From IMG/VR virus record IMGVR_UViG_2571042445_000002: DNA of 64,000 bases. One strand, given 5' to 3'. Within the stretch, counting starts at the first letter, position 1, and every line of letters begins with the position of its first letter. This document shows positions 6,801 to 51,352 of this stretch, piece after piece. The notes beneath the pieces are model-generated. The model was given only the letters and a program-made list of their open reading frames with translations. It did no database searches and was not told the DNA's origin. The position numbers and the translations under genes are program-made. The stretch comes from a virus. Lineage: Duplodnaviria > Heunggongvirae > Uroviricota > Caudoviricetes.

Positions 6801-7327
6801 ATGCTATACGCCTAACTTATAATAATAACTATGGATTCCTAATAACTAATACTGGATATAGTTTCCAGATATCAACCACTGGGCAAAATGTTAATGGTGA
6901 TGTCGTTTACACTCCATTAAAGATAGATGGCGGTGATGGTCGCGTAGAATTAGGACGTGCTGATGGTCATGTAAGGGTTATGGGGAATTTATCTGCCGCT
7001 GGTCAGATTACCCCTGGTAACTATAGTAATTTCAACACGAAATATCAGGCTAAAAACACAGCATATGCCAACATTCATGGATGGCATAAGGATACATCAA
7101 CTAAGGTGATGATGCAGTGGGGGTTTATAACAAATTTAACTCCAGGAAGCGTGGTTAAATTTCCGACTACTTTTCCTGAGGCGTGTGCGGTAGTTGTGAT
7201 TTCGCCTCACAGCGGGAATGCTGTCAATTCAATTCTTTATACATACAACCACTCAGTCACTGGTTTTACAGTGAAAAGTAGCTCCACTGATAAAATATAT
7301 GCACAGTATGTTGCTTATGGTTATTAA
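3818..7327 (+). CDS. tail fibre protein with internal 40-aa shaft repeats
   Basis: 1169 aa; about 8 copies of the unit TGNQSTTGNAATATKLQTARTIGGVSFDGSANIDLPGVNK; followed directly by a Tfa gene. Confidence 0.8.
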   Translation: MCADKVKNIVTLSSDISAPLIADMQYFELYSTEALNRKMKNIVLPGVYCGFEPVPGDGLFVRITSEKTEGRGAASIDVGKCQISVQQVSDVLVPVEAGVTTIIVLEANYEHGVKTSQVDSSSDISAARIIALVDEEIASNQIELCRVIVPDNAQAVTADMISTEYRANRAVGVEFSSALDSDEEYKAATPLAISTLNKLKAPVDSPEFIGIPKSPTPEQGTNSTQIANTAFVQAAITALIDGSPSALDTLKKIADAINNDPQFSQTINAALALKAPLLSPAFTGVPTAPTASQGTNNTQIATTAYVRAAISALVGSSPEALDTLNELAAALGNDPNFAATMTNALAGKQPLDATLTALADLATGANKLPYFTGTDTVAQTDLTSVGRDILAKTSTLAVIQYLGLRELGTSGEKLPLLSTANTWSARQTFSAGITGTLTGNADTATKLKTARKINGVAFDGSADITLTPEDLGLTDIASQAGNAVQRSGDTMGGQLKIGTINALRIFNQDFGLIFRRSEEYLHLIPTNEGEGENGDIGPLRPFSINLRTGLVSIGNGVKVGGGITGNLTGNADTATKLKIARTIGGVSFDGSANIDLPGVNKTGNQSTTGNAATATKLQTARTIGGVSFDGSANIDLPGVNKTGNQSTTGNAATATKLQTARTIGGVSFDGSANIDLPGVNKTGNQSTTGNAATATKLQTARTIGGVAFDGTANINLPGVNIAGNQNTTGNAATATKLQTARTINGVKFDGSANISIPTITSRGRVTALTSTTQGATTGLQMYEAYNNGYPSAYGNVLHLKGATAAGEGELFIGWSGTSGAHAPVHVRSRRDTDTASWSEWAQVYTSKDSIPGVNTTGNQNTTGNAASATKLQTARTIGGVSFNGTANIDLPGVNKTGNQSTTGNAATATKLQTARTIGGVSFDGTANINLPGVNIAGNQNTSGNAATATKLKTARKISGVAFDGSADITLTASHVGALPTTGGTVTGEIISSSQNAIRLTYNNNYGFLITNTGYSFQISTTGQNVNGDVVYTPLKIDGGDGRVELGRADGHVRVMGNLSAAGQITPGNYSNFNTKYQAKNTAYANIHGWHKDTSTKVMMQWGFITNLTPGSVVKFPTTFPEACAVVVISPHSGNAVNSILYTYNHSVTGFTVKSSSTDKIYAQYVAYGY
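5564..5923 (+). repeat. three near-identical tandem 120-bp repeats inside the tail fibre gene
   Basis: period exactly 120 bp (5564, 5684, 5804); more diverged copies continue to about 6720. Confidence 0.9.
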
Positions 7328-32515: not shown

Positions 32516-32591
32516 TGATGGTGTAGCTCAGTGGTAGAGCAGTTGGCTGTTAACCAACTGGTCGGTGGTTCGAATCCACTCACCATCGCCA
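32516..32591 (+). tRNA. tRNA-Asn (anticodon GTT)
   Basis: 76 nt; acceptor gatggtg/caccatc, anticodon loop CTGTTAA, T-loop TTCGAAT, 3' CCA encoded. Confidence 0.85.
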
Positions 32592-32593
32592 AT

Positions 32594-32669
32594 GCCGGTT
32601 TAGCTCAGTTGGTAGAGCGCCTGCCTTGTAAGCAGGATGTCAGCGGTTCGAGTCCGTTAACCGGCACCA
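32594..32669 (+). tRNA. tRNA-Thr (anticodon TGT)
   Basis: 76 nt, 2 nt after tRNA-Asn; anticodon loop CTTGTAA; T-loop TTCGAGT; CCA encoded. Confidence 0.85.
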
Positions 32670-32671
32670 AC

Positions 32672-32760
32672 ACAACAGGTAAGGGTATTTTGCGACGTCG
32701 GAGATCGCCGAGCTTGGCAGAGGGTTCGAATCCCTACGAAGTACCCTTACCGTTGTGATG
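32672..32760 (+). ncRNA. tRNA-like hairpin element or pseudo-tRNA
   Basis: 15-bp stem acaacaggtaagggta/tacccttaccgttgt enclosing a T-arm-like GGTTCGAATCC; no full cloverleaf. Confidence 0.3.
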
Positions 32761-32857
32761 AATGCACAGGCTGATGTGCCGCAACTACAGTAGTGCGCGC
32801 TTTGCGGGGCTTGCTACAACCCTGTGTCGGAGTTCAGCACCGACCATCACAATCACT

Positions 32858-32944
32858 GGAGAGTAGGGAGCATGGTGCTCAAGCGGTCTTGAAAACCGTC
32901 CCATTGCGCAAGCGATGATGGTTCGATTCCATTACTCTCCGCCA
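32858..32944 (+). tRNA. tRNA-Ser-like (anticodon TGA), long variable arm, atypical D-arm
   Basis: acceptor ggagagt/actctcc, anticodon loop CTTGAAA, long variable arm, T-loop TTCGATT, CCA encoded. Confidence 0.5.
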
Positions 32945-33200
32945 GCGCAACGTTAAGAGTATTTGGCTAATTAAGCGAATGCCGGAAGCAGAACCGGATC
33001 ACCAAATGCTCTTACCATTGCGGTGAATGCGGCTAAGCGCACGCGGAACAGTTAAAACAGTAAAGGTGGTCTTTTTACTGGCGTAACGAGAATCCATAAG
33101 TGATCCGGCGTTAATTGTTAACTGGTTAACGTCACCGGGAGGCACCCGGCACCGCAACCTAACAGCAATGGCGTTTTGTCTTAAAAGGTGGCTGCAAGTG

Positions 33201-33329
33201 ATGGATTTTTGGGCGTTTGCCGATAAAAACCCGGAGTGGACATTATTGTTTCTGCTGGTGGTTGCATACGGGGTAGAGCAAGCGGCAAAAGCCTTACGCG
33301 GTTCTGGCAAAAAGCGTAAGCGTAATTAA
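33201..33329 (+). CDS. small membrane peptide (42 aa)
   Basis: ATG ORF MDFWAFADKNPEWTLLFLLVVAYGVEQAAKALRGSGKKRKRN, one TM helix plus basic tail; below the ORF-track size cutoff. Confidence 0.25.
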   Translation: MDFWAFADKNPEWTLLFLLVVAYGVEQAAKALRGSGKKRKRN

Positions 33330-33338
33330 CAGTAATCT

Positions 33339-33414
33339 GGCCCTTTAGCTCAGTGGTTAGAGCGGGCGACTCATAATCGCACGGTCACCGGTTCAAGTCC
33401 GGTAGGGGCCACCA
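33339..33414 (+). tRNA. tRNA-Ile2 (anticodon CAT, lysidine type)
   Basis: 76 nt, nearly identical over D-arm and anticodon arm to E. coli tRNA-Ile2 as I recall it; CCA encoded. Confidence 0.8.
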
Positions 33415-35322: not shown

Positions 35323-36683
35323 CGTTAATTAACTGGGAAGCGCATCGAGCTAAGTTCCTGGAGTTAAGAGAAGAAACCGGGATCACCATAAAAGAATATT
35401 GCGAGCAGCATGACCTCAGCTTTAACACCGCCAGAAAGCATCTCAATATGAAAAAAAATGAGGTTAAGGCGAAAGCTAAGGCTACCGGGAAAAGTACAAA
35501 ACAGCGCGCAAAAAGCAGTGCCACCGGCTCAAAAAAAGAGCAAAAAAAGGCTAATAAAAGCACAGAATTTACAAAAACTGACAAATCGTTGGCTGGTGGA
35601 CGGTTCCGCGCCATGCCGCAAAAACAAAATGCGGATCACAAAGAAAAGCCAAGTAATAACAACAAGATACACAAGGATGTGAAGGGATCATTTTGTGATG
35701 AAATGGGAGAAATGATCCCTAAAAGCAGCGATAAAGCCCAACGAAACAAGGGATCATTGCAAATGATCCCTGATTCATCAGCTCAAAGCACCACTTTGCC
35801 TGCCACCAACGTCGCCCGTGAGATGATGAAGAACGGCGCGACTGAACATTTACGACTTGCGATACAGATGGCGCAGGAACGAGCAATTCAGTATCAGGCT
35901 ATCGTTGACCAGGAAGCGGAGCGACTACAGGAAGAGATTGACGCTCTCGGTGATACACAGCCAGAGGGGATGCACCCAGGGCAGCGTCTTCTCGGACTGA
36001 TCAGCGATGCGGCCTACTACATGAATGACTTTATCACCAGGCTGGCAGCCATCTATCAGAACGAGCAGAAGCTACGCCAGGGGGATGAAAAACTTGCGCA
36101 GGGCGCGCGTCAGCAGGCATTCAGGGAGGCTGAGGCCAGAGAAAAACTGGCGATTGCCCGCCTACAAGCCGAGCAGCGTGGCAAGGAGATTGAGTATCGC
36201 ATTGGCGCTGACGCACGCGCCGCCAGGGTTATCGCCGCCGCTATACGTATGCGTGAGCGCGAGGAGCTGGATGATATAGGTGTTGCTGAATATATCGAGC
36301 GGCAGGGCGTCAGTGTCCCGGCTATCCTGGCGGCACGAGCGGCAAAAGCGATCTCACTTCTGGAGCCTCCGGTTTCTGACGTTAACGATGTTGATGATGA
36401 GCAACTGGATAAAGAGGCGAAGCAGTTTGCCGAGCAACAAGCTGGACTCCCACAATGGCTTGCACAACGCCGGGCTGAAGTAGCGAAAATCGTTGATAGG
36501 CTTGGGATGGGGGATTACGACCGGAACGGAGAACGTAAAGCCGGTGAATTTGAGGCCAATGATGAAGACCTGAATATAGACCCTTCCGCCACGGCTGATA
36601 TCTACGGTGATTATGACGCGGGGGATACCGGTTTTGATGCTGTAGATGACGAGATTGCGATAGACCAGCCGGAGGATGACTAA
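35319..36683 (+). CDS. pacA: PacA-like terminase small subunit
   Basis: 454 aa; basic Lys-rich N-terminal region, acidic C-terminus; contains the GATC-rich candidate pac site; precedes the terminase ATPase. Confidence 0.5.
   Translation: MTLINWEAHRAKFLELREETGITIKEYCEQHDLSFNTARKHLNMKKNEVKAKAKATGKSTKQRAKSSATGSKKEQKKANKSTEFTKTDKSLAGGRFRAMPQKQNADHKEKPSNNNKIHKDVKGSFCDEMGEMIPKSSDKAQRNKGSLQMIPDSSAQSTTLPATNVAREMMKNGATEHLRLAIQMAQERAIQYQAIVDQEAERLQEEIDALGDTQPEGMHPGQRLLGLISDAAYYMNDFITRLAAIYQNEQKLRQGDEKLAQGARQQAFREAEAREKLAIARLQAEQRGKEIEYRIGADARAARVIAAAIRMREREELDDIGVAEYIERQGVSVPAILAARAAKAISLLEPPVSDVNDVDDEQLDKEAKQFAEQQAGLPQWLAQRRAEVAKIVDRLGMGDYDRNGERKAGEFEANDEDLNIDPSATADIYGDYDAGDTGFDAVDDEIAIDQPEDD
35680..35772. 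promoter_or_regulatory. candidate pac packaging site (four AGGGATCATT elements)
   Basis: GATC at 35686, 35714, 35752, 35765 as two inverted pairs within pacA; P1 pac is a cluster of Dam-site hexamers inside pacA. Confidence 0.4.
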
Positions 36684-38191
36684 TGGCTGGTGGTCGTAAG
36701 ATTAAGTGCGTCACCAGTGATCCACGTTGGCGCGATATGGTTATCAGGTATCGATACAACTTTACCCAGGCGGTTGTCGATATTTTTGGGATGTTCCCCT
36801 CCCACCAGCAGCAGCAGATCATTCAGTCAGTGCAGGAGACGGGGAGCAGGACGACCGTTACGTCCGGACACGGAACGGGTAAGTCGTCCCTTACCGCGAT
36901 GTTGCTACTAATTTTCATGATCCTGTTCCCCGACGCCCGCGTCATTATTGTTGCGAACAAAATAGGCCAGGTAAAAACAGGCGTATTCAAATACGTGAAA
37001 CAGTTTTGGGCGAATGCTGTTAAGCGTCACGGCTGGTTACAGACCTATTTTGTCCTGTCTGACACCATGTTTTATGAGCGTTCCCGTAAAGGGATATGGG
37101 AAGTGCTCTGTAAAGGTTATCGACTCGGTAACGAAGAGGCACTGGCGGGGGAGCACGCTGAGCATTTACTGCTAATCCTTGATGAAGCATCGGGCATATC
37201 CGATAAGGCGATTAACGTCATGACGGGGGCGTTAACGCAGAAAGATAACCGTATGCTCATGCTTTCCCAGCCTACGCGTCCAAGCGGTTACTTTTATGAA
37301 TCTCACCATTCAAGGGCAAAGGCAGAAGGCAATCCGGAAGGTGTCTGGACGGCAATAGTCCTTAACTCTGAAGAATCACCATTCGTTGAACCGAGCTTTA
37401 TTCGTGAGAAATTGCTGGAGTACGGCGGCAGGGATTCGCTGGAGTACATGGTTAAGGTGCTGGGCCAGTTCCCGCGTGCAATTAACGGGTATTTGCTTGG
37501 TCGTGATGAGTGCGACCGCGCCGCACGGCGTAAAGTGTTGCTGGAGAAAGATTGGGGCTGGGTAGCGACCGCTGACGTCGGTAATGGTCGCGACAAATCG
37601 GTGCTCAATATATGCAAAGTATCCGGTTATCGTGAGAAACGACGCGTTGTGAACTTTAAGATACTGGAGATGCCAGGCACTATGGACCCGTTGGCTTTTG
37701 CCGACTTTATCTATAACGAATGCACTCCTGATAAATACCCGAACATCACCATTGCTGTGGATGCTGATGGCTTTGGTTCAGATACGTGTGCGCAGCTTGT
37801 CCGCCGTGGTGCTAATCCCGTTCGCATCCGTTGGGGTAAGCCTATGTTTGCGCTGAGAGACAGAGAACGCTTTGTCAATCAGCGTGCTTACGCCAATATT
37901 ATGGCAGGGGATGCCATTAAATCCGGGCGTATGCGTATCGATAGTGACCCCAAAACCGCAGATCAGGCATCAAAAATCCCGTATATGCTTAACGAAGAAG
38001 GGAAGGTAGCGATGATGCGCAAGGAGCACATGCGGCAGAAGTTAAACATCAAGTCACCGGACAGATGGGATACCTACTGCTTCACTATGCTGGTGGATTA
38101 CGTGCCTGCTAATGAAGACATTGGCGCAGAACTCGCAACATTCCGCGATCAGGTGTTGGCAGAAGTGGATATTCCTGATATTGACATTTAA
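36683..38191 (+). CDS. pacB: PacB-like terminase large subunit
   Basis: 502 aa; Walker A-like SGHGTGKSSL; ATGA overlap with pacA. Confidence 0.55.
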   Translation: MAGGRKIKCVTSDPRWRDMVIRYRYNFTQAVVDIFGMFPSHQQQQIIQSVQETGSRTTVTSGHGTGKSSLTAMLLLIFMILFPDARVIIVANKIGQVKTGVFKYVKQFWANAVKRHGWLQTYFVLSDTMFYERSRKGIWEVLCKGYRLGNEEALAGEHAEHLLLILDEASGISDKAINVMTGALTQKDNRMLMLSQPTRPSGYFYESHHSRAKAEGNPEGVWTAIVLNSEESPFVEPSFIREKLLEYGGRDSLEYMVKVLGQFPRAINGYLLGRDECDRAARRKVLLEKDWGWVATADVGNGRDKSVLNICKVSGYREKRRVVNFKILEMPGTMDPLAFADFIYNECTPDKYPNITIAVDADGFGSDTCAQLVRRGANPVRIRWGKPMFALRDRERFVNQRAYANIMAGDAIKSGRMRIDSDPKTADQASKIPYMLNEEGKVAMMRKEHMRQKLNIKSPDRWDTYCFTMLVDYVPANEDIGAELATFRDQVLAEVDIPDIDI

Positions 38192-38228: not shown

Positions 38229-39266
38229 TTACCAGAGTTTTGCCGCGTACATCGTTTGTGTGAATGTGTACCCATAGCGTTCTTCAACGCTTTTACCGTA
38301 TTTTTTCCTGGCTTCAGTAAGGCGGATGCCTGTCAGGTCATCGCCGGAGGCAATCATAACTTCCAGTAGTTCCAGGTCCATTTTATCCAGCCTTGCCATT
38401 GCATCTTTAGCCTCTTGAATTTTCCGGCTAACGATCTGGTGTATGGCTGGATCGGCTTCGGCCAGCATTTTATCTGATTTGTTTTTTAAACTCTGATTGC
38501 GGATATCAATGTTTCTCAGGATATATGACTTCACGACGTAGCTTGGCTGCTGCTTTTCCAGATCACGAACCCGATAAAGGTCAAATTCGCCGAGAAGTCC
38601 GCACGGAAGCGGTTTAATGCCAGTGTAAATGGTAAGGGTGCGGCGCTCACCAACGTTGTTAACAACGGGAATCTCTGTGTTTGCTTTTTTTGCAAAGATC
38701 AGCGCACCGTGCGTACCCACTCTGAAGCGTGAAAGTCCATTGTTGCCCTCAATATTGGTGGTAATCACCACATCGGTATAACCTTCTTTTCTTGCGCGGT
38801 ATACCTCGCCCTCACGTTCAGCGGCGAAGAATCTGCGTTCTTCTTCAAGCGCACCGACAACCTGTGAAAATATCCTGTTTTTCATGCTTTTCTTTATAGT
38901 TTTATCGTATTTTTTCAACAGGTCTTCGCGCGTAAATGTTCTCGTTGTGGTTGCGCTTTGCATAACGATATGCGTACTCTGATTAGTATCCTCAACAATG
39001 AATGGGATCGGTAAATAAACCGACTCAACAATGTTTGAGGCTTTGTCATCATCCTTGCGACACAGATCAACAAAGGCTTTCCATTCGGCTATGCATTTTT
39101 CAGCTTCTTCTAATACAGCCGGATCATGTGTTAATGCAACATGGCGAAATTCCTCGCCAACATAACTGGTATCATGGAAAACAGAGTTTGCGACCACCAG
39201 CTCTTTCCACCGTTCAGCGGTTTGCAGGAACCGTTTGTACTCATTCTCGATCGACTTCTTACTCAT
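38229..39266 (-). CDS. candidate master repressor (C1 position); function unproven
   Basis: 345 aa from the internal Met (MSKKSIENEY); convergent with pacB as P1 c1 is; operator motifs in its own 5' region. Confidence 0.3.
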   Translation of the reverse strand: MSKKSIENEYKRFLQTAERWKELVVANSVFHDTSYVGEEFRHVALTHDPAVLEEAEKCIAEWKAFVDLCRKDDDKASNIVESVYLPIPFIVEDTNQSTHIVMQSATTTRTFTREDLLKKYDKTIKKSMKNRIFSQVVGALEEERRFFAAEREGEVYRARKEGYTDVVITTNIEGNNGLSRFRVGTHGALIFAKKANTEIPVVNNVGERRTLTIYTGIKPLPCGLLGEFDLYRVRDLEKQQPSYVVKSYILRNIDIRNQSLKNKSDKMLAEADPAIHQIVSRKIQEAKDAMARLDKMDLELLEVMIASGDDLTGIRLTEARKKYGKSVEERYGYTFTQTMYAAKLW

Positions 39267-39296: not shown

Positions 39297-39366
39297 AAAG
39301 TCCTGTGACAAATTTATGCCGAATAACAAGGTGAGTAAAGGATAAAACCGCTTTTTTTTGATTGTT

Positions 39367-39383
39367 CCTATTAGAAAATGTAA
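39367..39383. promoter_or_regulatory. operator-like motif
   Basis: CCTATTAGAAAATGTAA. Confidence 0.45.
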
Positions 39384-39462
39384 CCAGGAGCGGCTACCGC
39401 ATGGCTGACGGATTTGCGAAGTGATCTGGTCGGTGTTTTTTTTTGGGAAAAAGTCCCGATTT

Positions 39463-39496
39463 CTAACTTTAAATAATTGGCATTATTTAAAGTTAG
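39463..39496. other. lox-like recombination site (13-8-13)
   Basis: CTAACTTTAAATA-ATTGGCAT-TATTTAAAGTTAG; perfect 13-bp inverted arms, asymmetric 8-bp spacer, 150 bp upstream of the Cre-like gene. Confidence 0.65.
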
Positions 39497-39647
39497 GCTA
39501 TAATCTCCAGTAAACAGGCAGTATTGACAAGGATGAAAAATCATGCCTCGAATCAAAGGCTTGAATTTTGAAAATTAACTTATAACTACCCTGTCAGTTT
39601 TCTATTTTTCACGTAGCGTTATCTGTATATAGAGGTTTAATAGTTTC

Positions 39648-40676
39648 ATGGGTGAACTAGTTATCTCCGGCGGTTCTGGTGGTTTTCTGCGCGATATTGG
39701 CACCGAATACCAGGAAGCTGCAAAAAACTTTATGCAGTTCATGAACGACCAGGGAGCTTATGCCCCAAATACACTTCGTGATCTCCGTCTGGTGTTTCAT
39801 TCCTGGGCGCGGTGGTGTAACTCGCGCCAGCGCCCCTGGTTCCCGATTACGCCGGAAATGGCCCGCGAGTATCTTCTCCAGTTGCATGAGGCCGATCTGG
39901 CTTCGACCACCATTGATAAGCACTATGCCATGCTTAACATGCTGCTTTCGCAATGTGGCCTCCCGCCGCTGTCGGACGATAAAAGTGTGTCTCTGGCCAT
40001 GCGGCGCATCCGGCGCGAAGCGGCAACGGAAAAAGGCGAGCGAACAGGCCAGGCTATACCGTTGCGGTGGGATGATCTGAAATTGCTCGACGTGTTGCTG
40101 TCCCGTTCCGAGCGGCTGGTGGACCTGCGCAATCGGGCGTTTCTCTTCGTGGCATACAATACCCTGATGCGTATGTCAGAAATCTCGCGCATCCGCGTCG
40201 GAGATCTGGACCAAACAGGTGACACTGTAACGCTGCATATTTCACACACGAAGACCATCACGACCGCCGCCGGACTTGATAAGGTGCTTTCTCGTTACAC
40301 TACCGCCGTACTGAACGACTGGCTGGAGGTGTCCGGACTTCGAGAACATCCGGACGCGGTGCTATTCCCGCCAATACACCGCAGTAATAAGGCCAGAATC
40401 ACGACAACGCCCCTTACTGCACCTGCAATGGAGAAAATATTCAGCGATGCCTGGGGGTTGCTGAACAAACGAGATGCCACGCCGAACAAGGGAAGATACC
40501 GGACGTGGACAGGCCATAGTGCGCGTGTTGGTGCGGCAATTGATATGGCTGAGAAACAGGTGTCAATGGTCGAGATCATGCAGGAAGGCACATGGAAAAA
40601 GCCCGAAACACTTATGCGATATTTGCGCCGTAGCGGGGCATCCGTTGGTGCAAATAGTCGCCTGATGGATTCATAA
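39648..40676 (+). CDS. cre: Cre-family tyrosine recombinase
   Basis: 342 aa; aligns along its length to P1 Cre as I recall it, including NTLMRMSEISRIRVGDL, WTGHSARVGAAIDMA, GTW and MRYLR (catalytic Arg, His-x-x-Arg, Trp, Tyr). Confidence 0.8.
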   Translation: MGELVISGGSGGFLRDIGTEYQEAAKNFMQFMNDQGAYAPNTLRDLRLVFHSWARWCNSRQRPWFPITPEMAREYLLQLHEADLASTTIDKHYAMLNMLLSQCGLPPLSDDKSVSLAMRRIRREAATEKGERTGQAIPLRWDDLKLLDVLLSRSERLVDLRNRAFLFVAYNTLMRMSEISRIRVGDLDQTGDTVTLHISHTKTITTAAGLDKVLSRYTTAVLNDWLEVSGLREHPDAVLFPPIHRSNKARITTTPLTAPAMEKIFSDAWGLLNKRDATPNKGRYRTWTGHSARVGAAIDMAEKQVSMVEIMQEGTWKKPETLMRYLRRSGASVGANSRLMDS

Positions 40677-40694
40677 ATTAATTTTCTAACAATC
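40675..40694. promoter_or_regulatory. operator-like motif
   Basis: AAATTAATTTTCTAACAATC after cre, upstream of the next operon. Confidence 0.5.
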
Positions 40695-40748
40695 TTTTTA
40701 GACAGTGCATTTTAATGTAAAGTACCCTCGCCTATTGCGGAGGGTACT

Positions 40749-41093
40749 TTGCACAATCGTATTACGGAATCAAAACGCTTCACTGTTGACGGTTACACCA
40801 TAACCTTCACTGCGGGCGTTAAGCGCGACCAGGCGGTCGTGGTGTTCGGTGTTATGACCGGACTTGATGCCGTTCCCGTATTTACCCTCGAAAAAAACTG
40901 GCGAAATCTGGAGGAAGCTGAACGCTACGTCCGGAAAGTAACCGTCATTGCTGCTGAAAAACTCCTGGCCCACTATCAGGAAAATTATCGCGCTATGACC
41001 GAGAAAATTAACCATGTTTTCACTCGCCCCACCAGCGGCTTCATTGCCCCTGATGCGAATGCCGGGCGCTATCCGGCAAGGGGGCGCAAATGA
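40749..41093 (+). CDS. hypothetical protein
   Basis: 114-aa ORF, first of an operator-controlled operon. Confidence 0.3.
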   Translation: MHNRITESKRFTVDGYTITFTAGVKRDQAVVVFGVMTGLDAVPVFTLEKNWRNLEEAERYVRKVTVIAAEKLLAHYQENYRAMTEKINHVFTRPTSGFIAPDANAGRYPARGRK

Positions 41094-41578
41094 AAACTTA
41101 CTACCCATCCCTGAACTGTTATCCAACCACTAATCCTGAGCTGTCAGGGAAACTTCTGTCCCTCCTGGCTGATAGTCCTGATGAATGGCATAAGCCTGGT
41201 GATATCAACACACAGTTCCCTGAGTACGGGTGTATCCGCACCAGAAATGAGCTGAAGAACCTCATTGCTCACGGTTTTGTTCGTCACCGTAGCGGGAAAG
41301 GCTATCAGTTGGCTATCCCACAAGGAGAGGCAAGAGAACTCTTTGGCTATCGAGAAAGCCAGACGCAAGCGCGGGTGATCGCAGAAATTATCCGTAATGG
41401 CAGCGTCTATGCCCGCAAATTCTGGCTGTCTGGCGGTGGTGATGCATCACAGTTCTTGCGTGCTGTGCGATCGCTGGAGGAACAAGGTGTTATCGAGAAT
41501 ACCTGCGTCTCCGTTCCGACCGCTCCGCATATCAAACGCCGGATTTATACATTTACCCGGAGAGCTAAAAAGCAATGA
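41090..41578 (+). CDS. hypothetical protein
   Basis: 162 aa, ATGA overlap on both sides. Confidence 0.3.
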   Translation: MKTYYPSLNCYPTTNPELSGKLLSLLADSPDEWHKPGDINTQFPEYGCIRTRNELKNLIAHGFVRHRSGKGYQLAIPQGEARELFGYRESQTQARVIAEIIRNGSVYARKFWLSGGGDASQFLRAVRSLEEQGVIENTCVSVPTAPHIKRRIYTFTRRAKKQ

Positions 41579-42069
41579 TTAACGTGAAAGTGAAACGCCT
41601 TCATCCGGCGGCAAAACTCCCCGTTTACGCCACCGCCGGATCGGCGGCGATGGATTTTGTTGCTGTTGAAATAACGCCGGGTATCGATAGCAACGGCGCT
41701 ATTTCCTCAAGCTGGTGGGTGCATACCGGCCTCGCTATGGCGATCCCTCCTGGCTGGTGTCTGAAACTTTATCCTCGTTCCGGATTGGGCTGTAAAAAGC
41801 ATACGCGCCTGGCTAACTGCGTAGGAATTATCGACTCCGATTATCGCGGTGAAATCATGGCAAAACTGATTACAGATCCCGGTGGTGAAGGCGTTTGCCT
41901 CAAGCCAGGAATGGCGGTCATGCAAGGCATTTTTGAGCGTGTTGAACCGGTATCGCTGGTAGAAGTTGATGAACTCGATGAAACAGAGCGAGGCGCTGGT
42001 GGCTTTGGTAGCACATCGGAAGACCGCGTTGAAATCAAGCGTACACCGCTTCAGTACGCAAAGTTTTAA
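41575..42069 (+). CDS. dut: dUTP diphosphatase (dUTPase)
   Basis: 164 aa; motifs AGSAAMDF, RSGLG, GIIDSDYRGE, C-terminal FGSTS. Confidence 0.7.
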   Translation: MINVKVKRLHPAAKLPVYATAGSAAMDFVAVEITPGIDSNGAISSSWWVHTGLAMAIPPGWCLKLYPRSGLGCKKHTRLANCVGIIDSDYRGEIMAKLITDPGGEGVCLKPGMAVMQGIFERVEPVSLVEVDELDETERGAGGFGSTSEDRVEIKRTPLQYAKF

Positions 42070-43630: not shown

Positions 43631-44011
43631 TCAAATATTGGAACCATATAGTTCACGTAGTTTTTCCGCTACTGAAGATACGGGGATTTCACCAGTTGCA
43701 GCCCCCACCGCAAGTTCCACCAGCACGGGAGAATCATATACCTGTATACCGTTACGGCGTAGAAATAGCAGCGCACTGTTTAGCGCGGTACGCTTATTGG
43801 CATCATTGAATATATGCCCTCTCGCTGTAGCCACCAGGTAGGTGGCGGAGACTTCGAAAAGGTCGGTGATCTCTTCGTAGGCAACTCTGGCCTGAACTCT
43901 CCCGATAATGGCCTCTGCCCTACCCGGATCTGACATTCCCGGCAGGCCGCCGTAGCGGTTTATATTCGCATCATGAAGCGCAATAAGTTCTTCCGGTGAT
44001 ATATGCCTCAT
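43631..44011 (-). CDS. doc: Doc toxin (Fic-family)
   Basis: 126 aa, near-identical to P1 Doc as I recall it ([17 protein letters not shown]...[19 protein letters not shown]). Confidence 0.9.
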
Positions 44012-44232
44012 TATCGGTTAACCAGTTCCTTGTTGGTGGAGTCCAGGGTGTCAAACAGGGATGCAAATTCAGCATCCAGCGCCGCTTTTTTGTAGGCTTC
44101 GAAAGTAGCCTTGCTGACAATTACTGCTGGCTCACGGCCTCTGCGGGTGATTTCAACCTCTTCCCCAGCTTCAACATTGTTGAGCACTTCAGAAAGGTTG
44201 CCGCGCGCGGTACGGAAGTTAATGGATTGCAT
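44011..44232 (-). CDS. phd: Phd antitoxin
   Basis: 73 aa from [41 protein letters not shown]; overlaps doc by 1 nt. Confidence 0.9.
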
Positions 44233-44408
44233 AAACACCTCGTGTACTCGTTATGTGTACACAATTATAAACCTCACAGGCATAAAGCACCAGCACTTTG
44301 CGGCTTAACAAACCTCTAGGCAGGTCATTCGTTGCCTAATGTCCGAACTGCTAAAGCATCCAAGTTGCTGTAGAATCACCGCCAATTACTTAAACCTGAA
44401 ATAAGTGG

Positions 44409-45971
44409 ATGAAAATGACAAGTATTCAACAACGTGCAGAGCTTCATCGCCAGATCTGGCAAATTGCTAACGATGTCAGGGGGTCAGTCGATGGATGGGA
44501 TTTTAAGCAATACGTTCTGGGCGCACTTTTCTACCGTTTTATCAGCGAAAATTTTTCCAGCTATATTGAAGCCGGTGATGACAGTATCTGTTATGCGAAA
44601 CTGGATGACAGCGTAATTACTGATGACATTAAAGACGATGCCATCAAAACTAAAGGCTACTTCATCTACCCCAGTCAGCTTTTCTGCAACGTAGCTGCGA
44701 AAGCAAATACCAATGACAGACTGAATGCGGATTTAAACAGCATCTTCGTTGCTATCGAAAGTTCTGCTTACGGTTACCCTTCAGAAGCTGACATCAAAGG
44801 TTTGTTTGCTGATTTCGATACTACCAGTAACCGCCTGGGTAACACCGTTAAAGATAAAAATGCCCGCCTGGCTGCGGTTCTGAAAGGGGTTGAAGGGCTA
44901 AAACTTGGTGACTTCCACGAACATCAGATTGACCTGTTCGGTGACGCCTATGAGTTCCTGATTTCTAACTATGCGGCGAATGCTGGTAAGTCAGGCGGCG
45001 AGTTCTTTACACCGCAGCACGTCTCTAAGCTGATTGCACAACTGGCTATGCACGGGCAGACCCACGTTAACAAAATCTACGACCCGGCAGCAGGTTCCGG
45101 TTCGCTGTTGTTGCAAGCTAAAAAACAGTTTGATGACCATATCATCGAAGAAGGTTTTTTTGGTCAGGAAATCAACCATACGACCTATAACCTGGCGCGT
45201 ATGAACATGTTTTTGCACAACATCAACTACGACAAGTTTGATATCAAGCTGGGCAATACGCTGACTGAACCGCACTTCAGAGATGAAAAACCGTTTGATG
45301 CCATCGTTTCTAACCCGCCGTATTCGGTGAAATGGATTGGCAGCGATGACCCGACGCTGATTAACGATGAACGTTTTGCCCCGGCTGGCGTTCTGGCCCC
45401 CAAATCCAAAGCTGACTTTGCGTTTGTATTACATGCACTGAACTATCTTTCTGCCAAAGGTCGTGCTGCGATTGTCTGCTTCCCAGGCATTTTTTACCGT
45501 GGCGGCGCGGAGCAGAAAATCCGTCAGTATCTGGTTGATAATAACTATGTCGAAACCGTGATTTCACTGGCACCGAACCTGTTCTTTGGCACCACCATTG
45601 CCGTAAACATTCTGGTGTTGTCTAAACATAAAACAGATACAAAAGTTCAGTTTATTGATGCCAGCGAACTGTTCAAAAAAGAGACTAACAACAATATCCT
45701 GACCGATGCCCATATCGAACAGATTATGCAGGTATTTGCCAGCAAGGAAGATGTTGCTCATCTGGCGAAATCTGTTGCGTTTGAGACTGTTGTCGCGAAT
45801 GACTATAACCTGTCGGTGAGCAGCTATGTGGAAGCGAAAGATAATCGCGAAATTATCGATATCGCTGAGCTGAATGCGGAACTGAAAACCACGGTCAGCA
45901 AAATCGACCAGTTGCGCAAAGATATTGATGCGATTGTGGCTGAAATTGAAGGCTGCGAGGTGCAGAAATGA
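44409..45971 (+). CDS. hsdM: Type I restriction-modification methyltransferase subunit
   Basis: 520 aa; SAM motif [10 protein letters not shown] and catalytic SNPPYSVKW. Confidence 0.85.
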
Positions 45972-47254
45972 GCGAGTTGAGTTATCTGGAAAAATTGCTG
46001 GATGGGGTTGAGGTTAAGTGGTTGCCATTGGGGAACGTCGCTGAAATTTATGGTGGCCTAACAGGAAAGAGTAAATCTGATTTTGAGAACGGTAATGCCA
46101 GATATGTTTCATACAAAAAAATATTTGGTTATTTAGATGTGAATGATTACCCTACTGATTATGTATATATTAGTGAGGGAGAAAGACAAAATAAAGTAAG
46201 ATATGGGGATGTTTTATTTACTGGCTCATCTGAAATTGCTGATGAAGCAGGCATGTCCTCCGCCGTTACAGTACACTTCGATGAATCAGTGTATTTAAAC
46301 AGCTTTTCTTTTGGTATCAGATTCAGTAACAGCATAAAAATCAAACCGGAGTTCGCAAAATACCTTTTTCGAACCCATTTCATGCGCTCTGAAATAGCAA
46401 AAACAGCTAGTGGTGTAACACGCTTTAATATTTCAAAATCAAGATTTAAAAAAATACTGGTTCCTATCATTTGTCCTAATGATCCAGAAAAATCCCTTGC
46501 CATCCAGTCTGAAATCGTTCGGATTCTGGATAAATTTACTGAGCTTACAGCTGAGCTTACAGCTGAGCTTACAGCTGAGCTTACCATGCGTAAAAAACAG
46601 TACAACTACTATCTTGACCAGTCGCTAAGTTTTAAAGAGGGTGAGGTCGAGTTGAAAACGTTGGGAGAGATGGGGACACTTATAAGAGGCAAACGCTTTG
46701 TGAAATCCGACATAATTCCCAAGGGAGTACCGTGTATTCACTACGGTGAAATGTATACCCATTACCGCATCTGGGCGGATAAAGCAAAATCGTATATCTC
46801 TGTTGAATTAGCGTCCAAGTTAAGAAAAGCCTCATGCGGAGATGTTGTTTTTGTCTCTGCGGGTGAAACAATTGCAGATATTGGTCGTGGAACAGCCTGG
46901 TTAGGCGATGAAGATGTTGTTATTCATGACGCATGTTTTTTCTATAAAAGTTCATTGAACCCCAAGTATGTGGCCTACTTCTCAAGAACAAATTTCTTCC
47001 ACGATCAGATTAAAAAATCGATCTCTTCGGGGAAAATTTCTGCCATCAATGCCAAAGGCTTTGAAAAAGTGATTATTCCAGTTCCTTCACCAGAAGAACA
47101 AGCACGCATCGTTGCTTTCTTGGACAAATTCGACACATTGACAAGCTCCATCACCGAAGGCTTACCCCGTGAAATAGAACTACGCCAGAAGCAGTACGAG
47201 TACTATCGTGATTTACTGTTCAGTTTCCCAAAACCTGAAACTGTCAGTAATTAA
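45968..47254 (+). CDS. hsdS: Type I restriction-modification specificity subunit
   Basis: 428 aa; two AT-rich target-recognition domains around a central conserved region with TAEL repeats; ATGA overlap with hsdM. Confidence 0.8.
46541..46585 (+). repeat. 12-bp tandem repeat (gagcttacagct, 3.75 copies) encoding (TAEL)n in HsdS
   Basis: direct read of the sequence; protein [22 protein letters not shown]. Confidence 0.9.
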
Positions 47255-47375
47255 TTGACCATTGCTACCGACCGGGCCACCTTAACACCCGGTCAGTATA
47301 TAGACTATTTTTTACACGCTGGAAGTCACCATTAACGCCCTTCCGGCCCTTGCCAGACGGCACAAAGGATGCGCT

Positions 47376-50300
47376 ATGACTCATCAAACACACACCATTG
47401 CTGAATCCAATAACTTTATCGTTCTTGATAAATACATCAAAGCTGAGCAAACAGGCGACAGCTATCAGAGCGAATCGGACCTGGAACGTGAACTGATTCA
47501 GGACCTGCAAAATCAGGGCTATGAATTTATATCCGTAAAATCACAGTCAGCGATGCTGGCCAACGTTCGGGAACAGCTTCAGAGCCTCAATGGTGTGATG
47601 TTTAATGACAGAGAGTGGCGGCGTTTCACGGAGCAGTATCTGGACAACCCGAGCGATGGCATTCTGGATAAGACCCGTAAAATCCATATCGACTATATTT
47701 GCGACTTTATTTTTGATGACGGGCGTCTTGAAAATATCTATCTGATAGATAAAAAGAATCTCATGCGCAATAAGGTGCAGATTATCCAGCAGTTTGAACA
47801 GACGGGTTCTCATGCTAACCGTTATGACGTCACGATCCTGGTTAATGGTTTACCGCTGGTGCAAATCGAACTAAAAAAACGCGGGGTGGCGATTCGTGAG
47901 GCTTTCAACCAGATACATCGTTACAGTAAAGAGAGTTTTAACAGCGAAAATTCCCTGTTTAAGTATCTGCAACTGTTTGTCATTTCTAACGGCACCGATA
48001 CCCGTTACTTTGCCAACACCACAAAGCGCGATAAAAACAGTTTTGACTTCACAATGAACTGGGCGAAATCAGACAACACGCTGATTAAAGACCTCAAAGA
48101 CTTTACCGCTACCTTTTTCCAGAAACATACTCTGCTGAATGTTCTGGTGAACTACAGCGTTTTTGACAGTAGTCAGACGCTACTGGTGATGCGACCGTAC
48201 CAGATTGCAGCTACCGAACGAATTTTATGGAAAATCAACAGTTCCTATAAAGCGAAAAACTGGTCCACTCCCGAAAGTGGTGGCTTTATCTGGCACACCA
48301 CCGGTTCCGGTAAAACACTGACCAGCTTTAAAGCCGCGCGTCTGGCAACAGAACTGGACTTTATTGATAAAGTCTTCTTCGTGGTCGACAGAAAAGACCT
48401 CGATTACCAGACGATGAAGGAATATCAGCGTTTTTCGCCAGACAGCGTCAACGGCTCGGAAAATACCGCAGGACTTAAACGAAATCTGGATAAGGACGAT
48501 AACAAAATTATCGTCACCACTATTCAGAAACTTAATAACCTGATGAAAGCAGAAAGCGACCTGCCTGTATACAATCAGCAAGTGGTGTTTATATTTGATG
48601 AATGTCACCGCAGCCAGTTTGGAGAAGCACAGAAAAACCTGAAGAAGAAATTCAAACGCTATTATCAGTTTGGTTTTACCGGCACACCTATTTTCCCGGA
48701 AAACGCCTTAGGCTCAGAAACAACCGCCAGCGTATTTGGCCGTGAATTGCATTCATATGTTATTACCGATGCGATTCGTGACGAAAAAGTGCTCAAATTC
48801 AAGGTGGACTACAACGATGTGCGGCCACAGTTTAAGTCTTTAGAGACAGAAACTGACGAGAAAAAACTGAGTGCGGCTGAAAATCAGCAGGCGTTTCTTC
48901 ATCCCATGCGTATTCAGGAAATCACGCAATATATCCTGAACAACTTCCGCCAGAAAACCCACCGTACTTTCCCTGGTTCCAAAGGTTTTAATGCCATGCT
49001 GGCAGTAAGCAGCGTGGATGCTGCAAAAGCCTATTATGCGACGTTTAAACGGTTACAAGAGGAAGCCGCTAATAAATCGGCTACCTATAAACCGCTGCGT
49101 ATTGCGACAATCTTCTCCTTTGCCGCCAATGAAGAACAAAATGCCATTGGTGAAATTTCCGATGAAACTTTTGATACCAGCGCAATGGACAGCAGTGCTA
49201 AAGAGTTTCTGGACGCTGCAATTCGTGAATATAACAGCCATTTTAAAACTAACTTTAGCACCGACAGTAACGGTTTTCAGAACTACTATCGTGATTTAGC
49301 CCAGCGGGTTAAAAATCAGGATATCGATCTGCTAATTGTCGTGGGGATGTTCTTAACCGGCTTCGATGCTCCAACATTGAACACGCTATTCGTCGATAAA
49401 AACTTACGTTATCACGGCCTGATGCAGGCATTTTCCCGCACTAACCGCATTTATGACGCCACTAAAACCTTCGGTAATATCGTCACTTTCCGGGATCTGG
49501 AACGCTCAACTATTGATGCCATAACGCTGTTTGGTGACAAAAACACCAAAAATGTGGTGTTAGAAAAGAGTTATACAGAGTATATGGAAGGCTTTACTGA
49601 TGCTGCTACAGGTGAAGCTAAACGCGGCTTCATGACAGTAGTTTCAGAACTGGAACAACGGTTCCCTGACCCTACCAGTATTGAAAGTGAAAAAGAGAAG
49701 AAAGACTTCGTTAAACTGTTTGGCGAATACCTGCGTGCCGAGAACATCCTGCAAAACTATGATGAATTTGCCACGCTAAAAGCCCTGCAACAAATCGATC
49801 TTAGCGATCCTGTTGCGGTAGAAAAATTCAAAGCAGAACATTATGTGGATGATGAAAAGTTCGCTGAATTGCAAACAATTCGTCTCCCTGCTGATCGCAA
49901 GATTCAGGATTATCGTTCTGCCTATAACGATATTCGCGACTGGCAGCGCCGTGAGAAAGAAGCTGAGAAAAAAGAGAAATCAACCACTGACTGGGATGAC
50001 GTAGTTTTTGAGGTCGATTTGCTGAAGTCTCAGGAAATAAACCTGGATTATATCCTTGGACTGATTTTCGAACACAACAGACAAAATAAAGGCAAGGGCG
50101 AAATGATCGAAGAGGTCAAACGCTTAATTCGTTCAAGTCTAGGGAACCGTGCTAAAGAGGGCCTGGTGGTCGATTTTATTCAGCAAACGAACCTGGATGA
50201 TTTACCGGACAAAGCCAGCATCATTGACGCATTCTTTACGTTTGCTCAACGCGAACAGAAACGTGAAGCAGAAGCATTGATAAAAGAAGAAAATCTCAAT

Positions 50301-50492
50301 GAAGAGGCGGCGAAACGCTATATTCGCACATCTTTAAAACGCGAATACGCCACCGAAAATGGTACAGGATTAAATGATACATTACCAAAACTTAGTCCGT
50401 TAAATCCGCAATATAAAACGAAAAAACAGACGGTTTTCCAGAAAATCGTCTCGTTTATTGAGAAGTTTAAAGGCGTAGGCGGAAAAATATAG
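47376..50492 (+). CDS. hsdR: Type I restriction-modification endonuclease subunit
   Basis: 1038 aa; Walker [15 protein letters not shown]-box [12 protein letters not shown]2 helicase layout. Confidence 0.85.
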
Positions 50493-50523
50493 CCCAATTC
50501 GTGTTTTTCTTGCGGGTTCTTAA

Positions 50524-50907
50524 TTAAACCCGCAAGAGATCGTGGGATTCTAAATAGCTAATATACTCCCCTTCCCCATCCGAGATAACACCTTCGTAAT
50601 ACTCGCGCTGCTCGTTGAGTCTGGATTTTGCAGCTTCCAGTTGTTTTGTTAGCTCTGCAATACGGCAAACATCGTTGATACGCCTTTCCTCTAATGCGTT
50701 GTTCTCATTCAGTAGTGCCAAAGCAACCTTTGGATTAAAGGCAGCAATAAATTCAGCGTTGTTTTTCAGAACGTGTTGCGCAATGGCCTGACTACTTAGT
50801 CGGACCTCATAACCACGTGCGCCACGGTGTGGTTTATATGAGTCCCAGTCTCCCCACGTTGCTTTCACTGCCGCCTCACGCAGTACCTGATAGTCAATCT
50901 TGCTCAC
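50524..50907 (-). CDS. Ead/Ea22-like prophage early protein (paralogue family)
   Basis: 127 aa; N-terminal 65 aa near-identical to the gene at 55782-56273; GTG start after GGAGGCAACCA. Confidence 0.4.
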   Translation of the reverse strand: MSKIDYQVLREAAVKATWGDWDSYKPHRGARGYEVRLSSQAIAQHVLKNNAEFIAAFNPKVALALLNENNALEERRINDVCRIAELTKQLEAAKSRLNEQREYYEGVISDGEGEYISYLESHDLLRV

Positions 50908-51352
50908 TGGTTGCCTCCTTATTAATCAGTTTATACAGGTGCACCACAGTCACAGAGAGTGCATCCATCGCTCGTTTATCCAGGCGCGGGGCCAGAGCAA
51001 CCAGTTCATTTATTGCAATCTGAATACGCTGCTCCGCCGCCAGCGTCGCGCGATTGCTCTCCAGTTCTGCAATTCGGCACATGGCATCAATATTTGTGTC
51101 TTCCAGGCGCTTAATTTCGCCCAGGAGTGCCAGCGCAACTTTTGGTGGGATAGCCGCGATATAACGGGCATTAGCACCAGCATTCCTTTGCCCATCAATG
51201 CCAGGCCAGTCAATAAAGTATCCGCAATGCCTACCCTCAGACGTGCGCGCAGGATAAATGCCGTTATGACCCGGCAAAATATATGCTACCCATTCATCTT
51301 GCGTTGCCTGTTCCGCCGCCTCGCGCAGTTCTTGATAGTTAATTTTGCTCAC
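50894..51352 (-). CDS. Ead/Ea22-like prophage early protein (paralogue family)
   Basis: 152 aa; MSKINYQELREAAE N-terminus related to neighbours. Confidence 0.4.
   Translation of the reverse strand: MSKINYQELREAAEQATQDEWVAYILPGHNGIYPARTSEGRHCGYFIDWPGIDGQRNAGANARYIAAIPPKVALALLGEIKRLEDTNIDAMCRIAELESNRATLAAEQRIQIAINELVALAPRLDKRAMDALSVTVVHLYKLINKEATSEQD

Follow-up and report, generated by a model that had tools for sequence, protein, structure and literature searches.

The 64-kb stretch of viral DNA analyzed here (the window) carries a compact recombination module at positions 39463-40676, consisting of a short inverted repeat followed by an intact gene for a Cre-family tyrosine recombinase. The genes that surround this module are those expected from a known relative, the phage D6. 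On its left are pacB (36683-38191, + strand), a 502-aa ORF for the terminase large subunit that is collinear with D6 pacB in both the immC and the genome records of D6, and the divergently oriented gene of a c1-type prophage repressor (38229-39266, − strand; 345 aa, 80% identical to D6 C1), which lies upstream of the inverted repeat. On its right are homologues of orf2 and orf3 (40749-41093 and 41090-41578, both + strand), situated downstream of the recombinase gene as they are in D6, and then dut (41575-42069, + strand), whose product has a Pfam dUTPase match. With the inverted repeat taken as rox and the recombinase gene as dre (see below), the resulting gene order, pacB – c1 – rox – dre – orf2 – orf3 – dut, is exactly that of the D6 immC record; the segment orf2 – orf3 – dut downstream of dre is likewise ordered in the plasmid NZ_CP085065.1. 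A megablast comparison of the region 39300-40800 to phage records gave a sole match, Escherichia phage D6 (~86% identity), with the annotation “dre: tyrosine recombinase” at this place.

The inverted repeat at 39463-39496 is perfect and 34 bp long (CTAACTTTAAATAATTGGCATTATTTAAAGTTAG), with 15-nt arms separated by 4 nt. Its inner 32 bp (39464-39495), when read on the minus strand, match TAACTTTAAATAATGCCAATTATTTAAAGTTA with 0 mismatches, and this is the sequence quoted as wild-type roxP, the target of Dre (PMC4777119). The same publication describes rox as a pair of inverted repeats, each of 14 bp, on either side of a 4-bp asymmetric spacer (14-4-14), and suggests that its functional crossover region perhaps has about the same length as in loxP. 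In the window the symmetry is one bp longer on each side (39463 C and 39496 G), giving a 15-4-15 arrangement, and just four bases at the center, TGGC, are asymmetric. An earlier reading made from the letters of the sequence only (the sequence-only reading) had attributed to this site the exact 13-8-13 layout of loxP; it can indeed be parsed in that manner, but the symmetry then runs two bases into the “8-bp spacer” from either side. In the GenBank record AY753669.1 (D6), the homologous place is annotated as the “region of crossover (rox) site for Dre recombinase”. The distance from rox to the ATG of dre is 152 bp in the window, both the orientation and this distance are the same as in D6, and the intervening DNA is conserved between the two. 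A search with the 32-bp core, allowing up to 3 mismatches, found no second match in the window (and none in any of 100 shuffled sequences); the sole other near half-site in the window, at 6813, has 2 mismatches and is approximately at the level expected by chance.

The dre gene (39648-40676 on the + strand, stop codon included) starts with ATG and has an uninterrupted reading frame of 342 codons for amino acids, in agreement with the initial description of a 342-aa recombinase adjoining a 34-bp site. Its product has the attributes of the broad class of Cre-like tyrosine recombinases: a C-terminal catalytic domain (Phage_integrase, PF00589, E=2.6e-17), an N-terminal SAM-like domain (PF02899, E=1.3e-5) and a nearly full-length alignment to Cre, with residues 22-341 matching the chains of Cre crystal structures in the PDB at E~4e-72. 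A search of NCBIfam, which has no dedicated model for either Cre or Dre, was uninformative, giving only Xer matches far below threshold. The closest characterized relative is the Dre protein of D6, to which the window protein is identical at 322 of 342 positions (94%), the two being of equal length and aligning without gaps. The next-best phage relatives are Cre proteins at ~42%; for P1 Cre itself the identity is 41% in a three-way alignment (139/338) and 42% by tblastn, so that the description of the protein as clearly diverged from Cre was accurate. All six catalytic residues are present in the alignment of the window protein with Dre and Cre, as the sequence-only reading had stated: R175, K202, H290, R293, W316 and Y325 correspond to R173, K201, H289, R292, W315 and Y324 of Cre, and R175, H290, R293, W316 and Y325 are listed as catalytic for Dre in PMC4777119. 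The protein is also 100% identical to WP_021551777.1, encoded by the plasmid NZ_CP085065.1; RefSeq names this entry just “tyrosine-type recombinase/integrase”, a label under which its identity as a Dre is easily missed.

The window protein departs from Dre by 20 substitutions, which affect Dre residues 2, 5, 9, 16, 19, 26, 30, 58, 59, 62, 63, 68, 76, 81, 102, 217, 227, 270, 329 and 331, and most of them are thus within the N-terminal ~100 residues. We compared them with the positions through which Cre is known to contact its DNA and discriminate between targets (e.g., 40-47, 86-94, 241-244, 257-266, 282 and 317-320). None of the 20 falls on an equivalent of the recognition positions checked, the window protein being identical to Dre at each of these.

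Beyond the module itself, a local BLASTN comparison of the whole window with the complete D6 genome, which was reportedly described by Gilcrease and Casjens in 2018, shows 49.3 of the 64 kb to be collinear with it, in reverse orientation and at 72-96% identity. Judged by this collinearity, the source of the window is a D6-like, P1-related plasmid prophage, D6 itself being excluded. Among P1-like phage-plasmids, D6 and its relatives have been placed in a group called “P1g2” (PMC10879196). The 1.5-kb region around rox and dre is 99.8% identical to ~94-kb circular E. coli plasmids, for example NZ_CP085065.1; with plasmids of E. marmotae it shares 99.0% identity. More generally, circular plasmids of ~90-95 kb that carry the rox–dre module occur in Salmonella and Shigella as well as in E. 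coli and E. marmotae. Of the 158 places that match this region in complete E. coli genomes, 153 are on plasmids and 5 are on chromosomes.

Several other features of the window deserve mention. A segment of ~7 kb (44270-51320) has no counterpart in D6, and most of it is taken up by a complete type I restriction-modification system (44409-50492, + strand) composed of hsdM (520 aa), hsdS (428 aa) and hsdR (1038 aa), the product of the latter having an EcoR124-type C-terminal domain. Just to the left is an ORF with a Fic/DOC domain (43631-44011, − strand); it overlaps a stretch (43641-44269) that is 93% identical to the phd/doc addiction module of D6 (87098-86470). There is also a cluster of tRNA genes for Asn(GTT), Thr(TGT), Ser(TGA) and Met(CAT) at 32517-33414 (+ strand). 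The Ser, Thr and Asn tRNAs of D6 are placed on the + strand in its GenBank record, but on the − strand by ARAGORN, which agrees with the orientation in the window; the D6 tRNA annotation looks like a strand slip.

When the window protein was compared with plasmid sequences by tblastn, its close relatives fell into three bands of identity: the window type itself (at least 99% identity; 7 plasmid records), the D6 type (90-95%; 100 records) and a third clade (80-90%; 85 records). The intact genes of this third clade encode proteins identical to the window protein at 301 of 342 positions (~88%) and to Dre at 308 of 342. Dre is represented in nature by at least three allelic clades, carried by common enterobacterial plasmid prophages. 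The dre alleles of the D6 type and of the window type each adjoin an unchanged rox, and this retention of the site by two clades whose proteins have diverged by ~6% provides a small natural tolerance map for the engineering of Dre. In the third clade the site itself varies. The S. Typhi plasmid pK91 (NZ_CP029912.1) and plasmid B of E. coli C9 (NZ_CP010131.1) have unchanged rox arms with TAGT replacing TGGC at the center, at ~152 bp upstream of the dre ATG. Plasmids of Shigella dysenteriae have a TAGT-type rox whose two arms also differ at one position each, and in one of them (CP026821.1) the dre gene is broken by frameshifts.

An exact 32-bp rox, a full-length Dre orthologue with its catalytic residues, and a site located between c1 and dre in a P1-related plasmid prophage are features of the Dre/rox system that the window shares. 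We consider it highly probable (roughly 95%) that 39463-40676 is the rox–dre module of a D6-like plasmid prophage and a natural allele of Dre/rox. The sequence-only reading was right in proposing a natural heterospecific pair of the Cre/lox kind, since the site is rox and its recombinase shares 94% identity with Dre; the novelty that it implied does not hold, as this pair is already known. The Dre/rox system of phage D6 is said to have been described in the original Dre paper by Sauer and McDermott in 2004. For intersectional genetics, Dre/rox is now a standard choice to combine with Cre/loxP, be it in bacteria, cell lines, zebrafish or mice. The suggested use as an orthogonal tool was correct for Dre/rox, for which an absence of cross-reaction with Cre/loxP has been published, but that use is already being exploited.

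What can be said about the specificity of the window allele follows from the comparisons above. D6 Dre is reported to recombine at rox, with no cross-reaction between Dre/rox and Cre/loxP (PMC3553980, PMC12331466). Because the window rox is identical and the substitutions in the protein avoid the recognition positions, the window allele would very probably have the same activity and specificity as D6 Dre, recombining rox with rox and sparing loxP, although the 20 amino-acid differences could alter its efficiency. The presence of both alleles beside one and the same rox further indicates that there has been no shift in specificity of either the site or the protein. One could nevertheless argue that the module is a new heterospecific pair, with a specificity of its own that is distinct from both Cre/loxP and Dre/rox and that arose through the differences at 20 of 342 positions or through the additional symmetric base pair of each arm (15 bp, as against 14 bp in D6). 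With the functional 32 bp of rox unchanged, the Cre recognition-equivalent positions untouched and D6-type and window-type alleles beside identical sites in nature, this seems to us very improbable.

The other two alternatives concern what kind of recombinase is involved. The sequence-only reading had itself named one case that would count against it, a protein so close to P1 Cre that the pair would simply be Cre with a misread site. The family is indeed common to both proteins, the element is related to P1 and the location, with c1 on one side and the recombinase gene on the other, is alike; however, a protein identity of 41%, a site that matches loxP at 21 of 34 positions and a differing central region rule out P1 Cre. 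The possibility that the module is an integrase with its att site, serving for chromosomal insertion instead of cyclization and dimer resolution, could be raised on account of the Pfam domain name (“phage integrase”) and of the 5 chromosomal places among the 158 matches in complete E. coli genomes. Against it are the 153 places on plasmids and the nature of the site, a simple symmetric lox-type core of 32 bp, minimal sites of this sort being what the closest characterized relatives, Dre and Cre, employ; we regard an integrase function as extremely improbable.

The location of rox may also have consequences for the expression of dre. A predicted sigma-70-like promoter, TTGGCA-16-TATAAT (39477-39504, + strand; 11 of 12 consensus positions), reads towards dre, with its −35 hexamer on the center of rox and its −10 hexamer starting 3 bp past the end of the 15-bp right arm (39496). 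The window and D6 have this sequence in identical form, and the third clade carries the related TTAGTA-16-TATAAT. The arrangement differs from that of P1 cre, whose annotated promoters are 100-400 bp downstream of lox. Because the −35 hexamer of the predicted promoter sits on the center of rox, it is tempting to speculate that dre transcription could be repressed by Dre occupying rox, and the overlap suggests an autoregulation of this type. A further idea is that the Dre elements found in nature may fall into “spacer types” (TGGC vs TAGT), which would restrict recombination between plasmid prophages resident in one cell. According to PMC4777119, when only the central 4 bp of rox are altered, compatibility with the wild-type site is affected only mildly. 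Spacer types and dre autoregulation at the rox promoter, taken jointly, are a tentative proposal that we think rather unlikely to be correct in full. Were it true, the TAGT spacer type would constitute a ready-made natural heterotypic rox.

The well-known functions of Cre/lox in P1 are to circularize the terminally redundant infecting DNA and to resolve dimers of the plasmid prophage. By analogy, Dre/rox would have two roles in the element studied here: circularization of terminally redundant DNA after infection and resolution of plasmid-prophage dimers, the latter allowing the low-copy plasmid to segregate. In the reaction that we envisage, each rox would be bound by two Dre monomers, one per inverted arm, and two such sites would be brought into synapsis within a tetramer. 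Tyr325, helped by R175, K202, H290, R293 and W316, would then cleave and exchange the strands around the asymmetric center, and strand exchange would presumably proceed via a Holliday-junction intermediate, as it does in Cre/loxP.

In comparison with the known systems, the window module shares with the Cre/loxP of P1 its protein family and catalytic residues, and also the placement of the site upstream of the recombinase gene, next to the immunity region. The mechanism is believed to be common to Dre/rox and Cre/loxP, with no cross-reaction reported between them (PMC4777119; for the latter point also PMC12331466). The arms of rox and loxP have more in common than the sequence-only reading had recognized: not AACTT only, but TAACTT plus ATA, or 9 of 13 positions per arm, although overall, in like orientation, the sites are identical at just the 21 of 34 positions given above and their central regions are different. 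The asymmetric center is 8 bp in loxP and 4 bp in rox, and the window site does not conform to the strict loxP definition (13-8-13, ATAACTTCGTATA-N8-TATACGAAGTTAT); similarly, at 41% identity the protein is neither Cre nor a near-identical allele of it. The Dre/rox of D6 is the closer counterpart, with an identical 32-bp rox, the same neighbors (pacB, c1, orf2, orf3 and dut) and a P1-related plasmid prophage as its carrier. It differs in having arms of 14 bp rather than the 15 bp of the window, and the D6 sequences (MF356679.1, AY753669.1) lack the type I restriction-modification insert and are only 72-96% identical to the window at the DNA level. Finally, the pairs VCre/VloxP, SCre/SloxP, Vika/vox, Nigri/nox and Panto/pox resemble the window module in combining a Cre-like recombinase with an inverted-repeat site of ~34 bp near its gene (PMC3553980). 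According to their published descriptions these five pairs are set apart as much more distant; Vika, for example, is 23% identical to Dre, and vox is 33% similar to rox (PMC3553980).
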